This document shows positions 10,301 through 13,300 of a DNA stretch of 64,000 bases, piece by piece. The first letter of the stretch is position 1; each line of letters begins with the position of its first letter. Position numbers: made by a program. This stretch comes from Myxococcota bacterium (GTDB lineage Bacteria; Myxococcota_A; Polyangia; Nannocystales; Nannocystaceae). The stretch lies in NCBI GenBank assembly GCA_039028615.1, contig JBCCHT010000006.1, forward strand, positions 1 to 64,000, read 5' to 3'.

Positions 10301-13300
10301 GGTGGCGGGCTTGAGGCGGTTGAGCGTCTCGATGAGCGCCAGGAGGTTCTCCTGGAGCTTCTCCTTGCCGAACGAGACCTTGCCGACCGGGGCGTGGACG
10401 ATGCCGGTCTTCTCGGTTCGGAAGTCGATGCGACCAGCCTTGAGCTCGCGGACGGCCTTGGACACGTCCATGGTCACCGTGCCGACCTTGGGGTTCGGCA
10501 TCAGGTTCCGAGGACCGAGGACGCGGCCGAGACGACCGACGAGGCCCATCATGTCCGGAGTCGCGATCGCGGCGTCGAACTCGAGCCAACCCTCTTGGAT
10601 CTTGGCGACCAGGTCGTCGCTACCCACCACGTCGGCGCCGGCTTCGGTCGCCTCAGCGGCACGATCGCCCTTGGCGAACACGACGATGCGGATCGACTTG
10701 CCGGTGCCGTGGGGCAGCGCGCAGGACGACCGGATCATCTGGTCCGCGTGACGAGGGTTGACGCCGAGGCGGGCGGCCACTTCGACGGTCTCGTCGAACT
10801 TGGCGCACTTGGACTGAGCAACGAGCTCACAGCCCTCGGCAATGGAGTATCGCTTGCTGCGATCGATCTTCTCGTTGTTGGCTTTGGCTTTTTTTCCCAT
10901 GCGGGTCTCCTTCGGGGTCCGAGCGAGGCGTTGGCCCCTCCCCCGAGTCGGAAAAACTCTGCGGTCGCGCTAGTCGACGATTTCCAGGCCCATCGAGCGG
11001 GCGGTGCCCGAGATGGAGCGCATGGCGTGCTCGACGTTGTACGCGTTCATGTCCTTGAGCTTCACCTCGGCGATCTCGCGGATCTGAGCCGAAGTGACCT
11101 TGCCCTTCTTCACCTTGTTGGGCTCACCGGAGCCCTTGGGGATCCCGGCCGCCTGCAGCAGCATGAAGACCGCCGGCGGCGTCTTCACGATGAAGGTGAA
11201 GGAACGGTCGGAGAAGACCGTGATCTCGACGGGCAGGACCTTGCCCTTGTCCTTCTGCGTGCGAGCGTTGAACTGCTTGCAGAAGTCCATGATGTTGACG
11301 CCCTTCGAACCCAACGCGGGGCCGATGGGCGGTGCGGGCGAGGCCTCGCCTCCCTTGCACTGCAACTTGATGAAGCCGGTGACCTTCTTTGCCATGACGA
11401 AAACCTCTTGGAACGCGACGAACGCGAGCTAGCTCGCGACGGGCTCGACCTCGGAGAAGTCGACCTCGACGCGGGTCGGTCGCCCGAAGATCGACACCGA
11501 GAGCCAGATCTTCTGCTTGTCGTTGTTGACCTCTTCGACTTCGCCGGTGAAGTTGGCGAAGGCGCCGCTTTTGACGCGGACTTGGTCGGCGACCTTGTAG
11601 ACGATGTCGGGAACCGGAGCCGTCTCGGGGCCCGTCTCGGTTTGCCCGGTGGTGTGCCCCAGCATCCGATTCATCTCGGACTGGCGCACCGGCTTGGGCT
11701 TGGGGTCACCGAGGAAACCGGTGACCTTGGGCGTGTTCTTGACGACGTGCCAGCTCTCCTTCGTGAGCTCCATGCTCACGAAGATGTAGCCGGGAAAGAA
11801 CTTGCGGGTGGTCTTGACGTTGCGCTTGCCACGGCGCTCGGTCACCTGCTCGGAGGGCACCAGGATCTCACCGAACTGGTCCTCCCAGGGCTTGTCCTTG
11901 ATGCGCTCCTCGAGCGCACGCTTCACCGAGTTCTCGTAGCCCGAGAACGTGTGCACCACGAACCATTCCTTCTCCGCGTCCGGCACGATCGGTATCTCTT
12001 CCCCTCGGCTAGATGCCGTAGAGTAGGTTGGTGACGGCCCGCCACAGCTGGTCCATCGCCGCCAGGAGCCCCGAGCTGATCAGGGTCATGACGATGACGA
12101 CCACGGTAGCGGCCCGGGTCTCTGCGCGCGTCGGCCACGTGACCTGAGCGATCTCGATGACGACTTCGGTGCAGAACTTGAACCAGTCCTTGCGGCGCCA
12201 CGCATAGATGGTGCCGAGGACGGCGACCGTGATCCCCGCGATGTTCGCCGTCAGGGGATCGGGCCGCGCCACGGACTGCGGCCATGCCGCCCAGATGAGG
12301 TCCCAGATGTCTTCGATCGCCCACGACAAGACCCACGCCCCCATGAAGCCACCGAGGACGAAGATCAGGTGTGCCCAGCGGCTGGGATCGAGGTCCCGTT
12401 TGATGCTGGACGGTTTTTTTCGCGAGCGAGCCATCGTGAGTCACATGATGGAGACGAAGGAGGCGGTTCTGACCGCGGAAACGGCGCCCCCCGAAACTCT
12501 TTGGCGATTCGGGGATGCGCCGTGTCCGATTTGGGCAGGGCGTGAGGGGCTCGAACCCCCGGCCTGCGGATTTGGAGTCCGCTGCTCTACCAACTGAGCT
12601 AACGCCCTAGAGGGAAAACGGGGACTACTTGGTCTCCTTGTGCTCGGTCTGACGCCGGCAAAAGCGGCAGTACTTCTTGAGAGCAAGCTTTTCAGGGGTG
12701 TTCCGCCGATTCTTCTTGGTGGAGTAGTTTCGGCGTTTGCACTCCTGGCATTCCAGGGTGATGATGATTCGATGTCCGGCAGCCATGGACGTCCTCCTGG
12801 CGCGAAGGGCCGTTGCCTATAGCAAGAGCCGTTCCGGGTTGCAAGCGAGCACCTGGAGCGTTGCCCAGGGGCTCAAAGTGACGAGTCTCGCGCGAAAAAC
12901 CGAAAGATTCTCGGGGCCGCGCTCGACCCGCAGTGACATGGGTTCTGATTGCGTTTGCGCCGACAGCCCCGGTCTCGTGAGAGAGGGAGCAGTCGGCGCT
13001 TAGAAGCAACGCGAGATCGCGTTACTCGAAGATCTTGGTGACGATGCCGGCGCCGACGGTGCGGCCGCCCTCGCGAATCGCGAACTTCAGCCCGTCCTCA
13101 CAGGCGATGGTGGTGATCAGCTTCACCTCGAGCTCGACGTTGTCGCCGGGCATCACCATCTCCGTGCCTTCCGGCAGGATCACGTCGCCAGTCACGTCCG
13201 TCGTACGGAAGTAGAACTGCGGACGGTAGCCCTTGAAGAACGGAGTGTGGCGTCCGCCCTCTTCCTTCTTCAGCACGTAGACCTGAGCCTTGAAGTGCAC

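Follow-up and report, generated by a model that had tools for sequence, protein, structure and literature searches.

Absence of Rho from a large, GC-rich genome and its order, with evidence for repeated loss of Rho in the class Polyangia

How does a large, GC-rich bacterium end its transcripts if it has no transcription terminator Rho? The question is raised by a nusG gene in the stretch of DNA analysed here, the first 64,000 nucleotides of a contig from a Nannocystales genome (G000), which we call the window. The preliminary description had used this gene to mark its claim that Rho is missing from the genome and from the whole order, and nusG serves us as an anchor only. Two features matter at the outset:

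Positions 11429 to 11986, minus strand: nusG, encoding 185 amino acids, the sole NusG-family gene in G000.
Positions 376 to 14221, minus strand: the run tuf-rpmG-secE-nusG-rplK-rplA-rplJ-rplL-rpoB-rpoC, from which the species-tree markers were taken.

The NusG of G000 keeps the NTP motif together with F143, F146 and I166-F167-G168, corresponding to F141, F144 and I164-G166 in E. coli. The rho gene was never located in the tuf-rpoC run; its ancestral site is acyP-rho-rpmE-prfA.

G000 comprises 12,267,695 bp in 94 contigs, with a GC content of 68.3%. The Rho model TIGR00767 (E ≤ 10) gave five matches, none above the cut-off (best E 0.002), and the three that were examined are by sequence V/A-ATPase A, F1 alpha and F1 beta. 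The V/A-type ATPase operon lies at G000:C1:87916-89718, beside an F1 operon on C28. Across the order, none of 73 genomes exceeded the TIGR00767 cut-off; 31 of them gave weak matches (E 3.5e-20 to 4e-6), the five best of which are FliI/YscN-type ATPases, by family labels taken from reading the sequences. The Rho RNA-binding domain, PF07497, was found in 0 of the 73 genomes at E ≤ 0.01, with a match in 9 of 14 controls, and its model stayed below the cut-off in four more genomes, closed or nearly so, that represent four families. We also used custom profiles derived from 80 Rho proteins of Polyangia, a set that includes 21 degenerate ones. Searched against all six frames of G000, they returned nothing, the best E for the N-terminal plus RNA-binding part being 1.4, and no degenerate Rho copy was found in G000 or the genomes of its order, closed ones included. 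All three kinds of search in G000 and both 73-genome surveys agree with what had been claimed: Rho is absent from G000 and from its whole order. Incomplete assembly, or a Rho diverged past detection, is an extremely improbable cause of this result and already largely ruled out: G000 is 96.7% complete in its 94 contigs, rho's former neighbours are scattered in it and the locus leaves no readable scar, and strongly diverged Rho is known in the class, but none of the 73 genomes has Rho, assemblies of 1-5 contigs among them (G035, G036, G037, G038, G042), profiles covering the degenerate forms detect nothing, the former neighbours sit within contigs, and clean mid-contig deletions are observed in another family, f14.

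How widely is Rho missing? Among 401 Polyangia genomes at least 85% complete, 123 matched Rho at E ≤ 1e-30 and 93 were above the cut-off. By state, 89 genomes carry canonical Rho, 25 degenerate Rho (21 by sequence reading, 4 assigned by score), 278 no match, 8 split or contig-end pieces known by match only, and 1 a short foreign-looking copy. Two genomes flagged as unpublished (G318, G338) are counted in these tallies and in those of the terminator proxy used below, and are excluded from the proxy statistics. Canonical Rho is present in at least half of the genomes in 20 of the 35 families. Eleven families have none, namely f1 (0/50), f18 (0/34) and several small ones, while four are mixed: f6 (6/51), f9 (8/58), f14 (27/98) and f7 (1/2). 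The label of f1 as Nannocystales is that of the preliminary description, and f14 is called Kofleriaceae-like from NCBI names on three homolog clusters; two named Polyangiaceae loci fall within f6, and a named Sandaracinaceae locus within the f18-f33 clade. Outside the class, 66 of 69 genomes matched Rho, 58 of them above the cut-off, and both genomes of family f53 lacked a match. Six genomes there (G452, G465, G469, G477 (f55), G473 (f60) and G481 (f61)) have full-length matches of low score (225-424 bits), which are probably further degenerate lineages. The earlier picture of one lineage-wide trait is thus only partly supported: the whole order lacks Rho, but in the class most families keep canonical Rho and the losses are repeated and scattered; the rest of the phylum mostly keeps Rho, as stated, apart from one family (0/2) and with six low-scoring copies. 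The tallies given earlier, 8 of 58 genomes in the class's families against 220 of 242 elsewhere, point in the same direction as ours, but the figures were not reproduced because the genome samples differ. Rho-less genomes span 1.8-15 Mb and Rho-keeping genomes 2.3-12.7 Mb; since these ranges overlap, Rho loss is not tied to genome size. At 12.3 Mb and 68.3% GC, G000 itself bears out the claim that Rho is dispensable in large GC-rich genomes.

We compared a species tree of 101 chosen genomes, based on RpoB, RpoC, RplA, RplK, RplJ and NusG, with a tree of canonical Rho. The Rho-less groups are scattered over the species tree. The Rho tree agrees with it in f6, including its internal split, and in the sister position of f29, and the groupings f2 with f5, f12 with f25 and f22 with f28 are likewise common to both. 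Because of this match, Rho was evidently inherited rather than regained, and the trees argue strongly for vertical inheritance of canonical Rho in the class. A single loss followed by re-acquisition is ruled out by the same agreement. The degenerate copies group near the root, which we read as long-branch attraction. A Dollo count on two trees of the 101 genomes yielded 19 losses of canonical Rho, 10 of which comprise at least two genomes; the trees come from FastTree and are weak at their deep nodes, which makes the count approximate. Canonical Rho was thus lost independently at least ten times in the class, and the single-genome losses may in part be assembly gaps. The genome with the foreign-looking copy, G418, is a case apart. 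Its native rho locus is cleanly deleted, and a short Rho with intact catalytic motifs lies at a contig end (L041 at G418:C57:5973-6962; L309, L310), which may be a re-acquisition or bin contamination.

The route to loss can be read at the ancestral locus, whose order is acyP-rho-(metallophosphoesterase)-rpmE-(DUF1385)-prfA, with gene labels from sequence reading. The diverged Rho copies of f14 and f7 that were examined with their flanks lie at this locus as open frames of 355-436 aa. Four states occur in f14: canonical, full-length with broken ATPase motifs, remnant, and clean deletion; the genus g68 alone holds degenerate, remnant and absent states. Residue positions follow the E. coli numbering, assigned by motif match, in which K184 and T/S185 form the P-loop, E211 is catalytic and R366 is the Arg finger. 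The full catalytic set (K184, T/S185, E211, K336, R366) is present in 58 of 58 canonical proteins against 0 of 21 degenerate ones, which have lost the catalytic E211 in 16 cases and K336 in all 21. The RNA-binding residues F64, R66, Y80 and R88 are intact in every one of the 21 degenerate f14/f7 proteins, and R212 and D265 are kept in all of them as well. In all of the 38 closest protein-database clusters, E211 is replaced by L, V, I or M, while the P-loop lysine and D265 are kept. In seven degenerate pairs, dN of the ATPase domain was 2.8-5.7 times that of the RNA-binding domain, and dN/dS was 0.04-0.45, compared with 0.02-0.11 in 11 canonical pairs, one at 0.26. Because the ratios of the degenerate pairs are below 1, these copies look like proteins under selection rather than pseudogenes. 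The E211A substitution abolishes hydrolysis and spares ATP binding and oligomerisation, according to the accessible part of PMC4499133; since it blocks hydrolysis only, we infer that the degenerate f14/f7 proteins are RNA-binding, motor-dead rings. They are currently annotated as ordinary Rho. The Rho proteins of G253 and G121 (f9; L186, L188) keep all motifs but evolve faster in the ATPase domain (dN/dS 0.26), which is perhaps early relaxation.

Twenty f14 genomes have no intact copy at the locus, and the downstream gene is present in 17 of them. In eight of these f14 genomes rho is gone and acyP directly adjoins the downstream gene; G236 retains a 126-nt remnant (E 2e-10), and the remaining genomes of the set have no rho within 1.5 kb. 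Read in this order, the states show a path to loss in f14 in which the ATPase motifs decay first while the RNA-binding domain is kept, followed by a remnant and then deletion. The genes once next to rho lie scattered within contigs of G000, and 5 of 5 order genomes tested lack the type of rpmE found after rho in other lineages. All five (L317-L321) gave only a weak rpmE match; in G000 this match (G000:C14:221084-221341) is of type B and adjoins rpsN. The Cys-bearing rpmE seems to have been lost together with rho in the order, and the dispersed neighbours and the missing rpmE type fit an old rho deletion.

With Rho absent and no clear replacement, most transcripts must end some other way. We favour, with modest confidence, factor-independent termination by few U-tracts, more U-less hairpins combined with collisions, and read-through that is tolerated and trimmed by nucleases. 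The window contains four features that bear on this proposal:

Positions 18730 to 18736, no strand: convergent junction with a 7-nt gap, which leaves no room for an intergenic terminator.
Positions 46267 to 46284, no strand: convergent junction with an 18-nt gap, at which no terminator was called.
Positions 54234 to 54267, plus strand: U-less hairpin of -30.6 kcal/mol, 14 nt past a stop codon, a candidate pause or termination site.
Positions 60437 to 60464, plus strand: U-less hairpin of -22.9 kcal/mol after a stop codon, of putative function.

Each of the window's five convergent junctions has a gap too short for an intergenic terminator (-18 to 23 nt), which is typical of G000. In our own gene calls for this genome (9,582 genes), 1,032 of 1,655 convergent pairs (62%) have gaps below 40 nt, leaving no room for a hairpin, and such tight ends show no terminator signal above shuffled sequence (16 of 600 ends compared with 12). 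The length distribution of convergent gaps has one peak at -4 nt and others at multiples of 3 as far as about 27 nt; a second mode lies at about 60-85 nt, where the hairpins are located. For gaps of 40-120 nt, a hairpin of -15 kcal/mol or below occurs in 245 of 435 convergent gaps (56%), against 14 of 361 divergent gaps (4%) and 9% after shuffling. A U-tail is present in 102 of the 435 convergent gaps and in none of the 361 divergent ones, and approximately 145 of the 245 convergent-gap hairpins are U-less. The hairpins are not a repeat family, because only 14 of 293 share a 14-mer. A strict scan predicts a U-tract terminator at 384 of 8,934 gene ends, and a second count gave 113 of 600 ends against 21 shuffled. 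Bidirectional U-tract sites number 48, against 5 for a reversed-order pattern and 21 for a backwards control, so the size of this excess depends on the control chosen; the proxy detects A4/T4 bidirectional sites only. Runaway transcription is recognised by terminator stems close to the stop codon, at a distance of about 12 nt or less. Only 3 of 106 calls at convergent ends of G000 have such a stem; stems begin a median of 25 nt past the stop (10th percentile 18 nt). There was no C>G skew after stops (0.008 over 3,231 ends), and coding purine content is 0.499. A boxA motif gave no informative result: one 16S gene was found, with no match. The RNA runs found were at contig level only, namely four metatranscriptome sets that contained 5-10% of words and yielded no evidence. 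U-tracts are shorter in high-GC species, as stated in the accessible text of PMC13613805.

This anatomy is read directly from the DNA, and each functional step built on it is put forward conditionally. G000 would end transcription without a dedicated factor. U-tract intrinsic terminators would act at a minority of ends, about a tenth to a quarter of the roomy ones; at more ends, strong U-less hairpins between convergent genes would pause RNA polymerase, and head-on and trailing collisions would release the paused enzyme. At tight convergent junctions, transcripts would enter the opposite gene, the overlap being tolerated and trimmed by RNase III and RNase E, while Mfd and RNase HI would clear stalled complexes and R-loops. 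NusA, NusB, Mfd, RNase III, RNase E and RNase HI are all present in G000. They are equally present in the Rho-keeping genome G383, so these housekeeping factors do not explain who can lose Rho. NusB (G000:C14:241578-242009) scored 96 and 84 bits in G000 and G037 against 139 in G383, and RNase III (G000 C13:45933-46619) 175 and 144 against 229; these low scores may reflect either relaxed antitermination or just a long branch. As a further step, Rho loss would relax the C-terminal domain of NusG in some lineages. In post hoc comparisons, the NusG I-F-G loop was unaltered in 32 of 32 Rho-keeping genomes and altered in 12 of 62 others, and C-terminal divergence was raised in 3 of 7 contrasts, most strongly in f1; G000 keeps the loop. 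The loop residues fall in the S10 and Rho interfaces, according to the accessible part of PMC13753749.

A different reading is that an unrecognised termination factor, or a property of the polymerase, arose early in the class and made Rho redundant, which would be why the losses cluster in Polyangia. We regard it as rather unlikely, even though at least ten losses fall in one class while 3 of the 69 genomes outside it have no match, most convergent ends of G000 carry no sequence signal, and U-tract terminators are scarce in many Rho-less genomes, as in f14, where 47 of 57 genomes of 7-13 Mb have at most three bidirectional sites. No candidate emerged from RNase J, FttA or a NusG paralog: RNase J was found in 0 of 3 Rho-less genomes compared with 2 of 2 Rho-keeping ones and in neither G000 nor G037, the FttA model (a KH-domain beta-CASP protein) matched neither genome, and G000 has no NusG paralog. 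Nor do RpoB and RpoC show convergent relaxation beyond a reverse control (10 versus 14 and 14 versus 9 columns). Torpedo termination by RNase J or FttA is not supported for G000, and Rho N-terminal proteins as a replacement were not found there. In the Rho-less f6 genome G331, two beta-CASP nucleases without the KH part match the FttA model (G331:C1:7301077-7302480 and 3352483-3353766).

It is more doubtful still that classical U-tract intrinsic terminators took over, as in Rho-less streptococci, mycoplasmas and cyanobacteria. That pattern is published for other Rho-less bacteria (accessible part of PMC11347177), and both the 113 of 600 ends and the 48 bidirectional sites of G000 exceed their controls; against this, the strict scan calls just 384 of 8,934 gene ends and there is no excess over Rho-keeping relatives. 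We ran the bidirectional proxy over 401 genomes and restricted the statistics to genomes of 7 Mb or more whose control count did not exceed 8, using counts transcribed by hand and leaving out G318, G338, G418, G332, G084, G101, G104 and G218. The median excess per Mb was 0.24 with Rho (n=17), 0.00 with degenerate Rho (n=17) and 0.18 without Rho (n=124). Rho-less genomes therefore have no more U-tract terminators than their Rho-keeping relatives (p=0.13), so classical terminators do not compensate for the loss of Rho. Within its group, G000 has the most such sites; its congeners G046, G047 and G050 have 0-1. Hairpins in convergent gaps were found in 14 of 22 Rho-less, 5 of 12 degenerate and 5 of 16 Rho-keeping pairs, an excess that is not significant in these small samples of fetched loci (p=0.10). 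Convergent gaps are shorter in the Rho-keeping loci, but those of G000 are just as short and the two sets of loci are not of the same kind. Coding-strand C/G and purine content of rpoB and rpoC showed no consistent effect of Rho state (p 0.15-0.7), with C higher in 6 of 9 contrasts, and a trend towards C>G skew after stops across ends was gone at the genome level (p=0.35).

Rho loss as such is of a known kind. In its accessible part, PMC11347177 lists Mycoplasmatota, Cyanobacteriota, 30% of Bacillota and Haliangium ochraceum as Rho-less, the last being 1 of 12 Myxococcota without Rho, reports Rho in Sorangium, Chondromyces and Minicystis, and describes about five losses in all bacteria, which it associates with small genomes that have a low GC content and many intrinsic terminators; PMC13613805, likewise in its accessible text, names Cyanobacteria and several Firmicutes as exceptions without Rho. 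Our lineages resemble these bacteria in having no functional Rho, lost independently from a Rho-bearing ancestor. They differ from the losses in the accessible part of PMC11347177 in that a whole order and at least nine further cases fall in one class with genomes of up to 15 Mb, and from its pattern in showing no rise in U-tract terminators. G000 is neither small nor low in GC, and most of its ends are not at predicted U-tracts (384 of 8,934 in the strict scan; 102 of 435 roomy gaps). The same source reports motor-less Rho-like proteins in two Actinomycetota, Baekduia and Conexibacter. The likeness to them is convergent because they belong to a different phylum; the f14/f7 forms, unlike those proteins, lie at the ancestral rho locus, where canonical, remnant and deleted alleles also occur, and have several origins within a single family. 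The collision-driven bidirectional terminators known from E. coli, described in the accessible part of 10.1101/2022.10.23.513370, consist of a hairpin between convergent genes, differ from intrinsic terminators and are Rho-independent. There they are an extra route in a Rho-bearing host, whereas G000 matches them in sequence anatomy alone, with hairpins, many of them U-less, in 56% of convergent versus 4% of divergent gaps. Work on rho-lost lineages of Bacilli deals with runaway transcription and purine bias (accessible part of PMC13323073); compared with these, stems in G000 lie farther from the stop (median 25 nt), and purine content shows no consistent shift with Rho state. For the terms searched, myxobacteria are not mentioned in the accessible parts of PMC13323073 and PMC12360218, and the literature found, mostly as listings, does not describe degenerate Rho in Polyangia or a loss of Rho there that is repeated or affects a whole order. 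The loss in H. ochraceum and the motor-less proteins of two Actinomycetota are already published; the scale, the repetition, the decay series and the missing U-tract compensation in Polyangia appear new.

These results matter because large GC-rich genomes are considered to need Rho most, its loss having been linked to small, AT-rich, U-tract-rich ones, and here cultured free-living groups of 9-15 Mb do without both Rho and U-tract compensation. As a tentative extension, which we consider possible without expecting it, a Polyangia-wide route without Rho or U-tracts, be it a factor or hairpin plus collision as the main mechanism, would let genomes of up to 15 Mb repeatedly drop Rho, and the motor-dead Kofleriaceae-like Rho, under purifying selection, would be a repurposed RNA-binding ring with ATP bound but not hydrolysed. 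If this were true, motor-dead Rho would be a natural test of Rho action without the motor. In practice, the choice of terminator matters for expressing gene clusters of these organisms. Since Rho-keeping, motor-dead and Rho-less relatives occur side by side, three questions can be tested directly: what makes Rho essential in some bacteria, what other means end transcripts, and whether Rho has a role without its motor.
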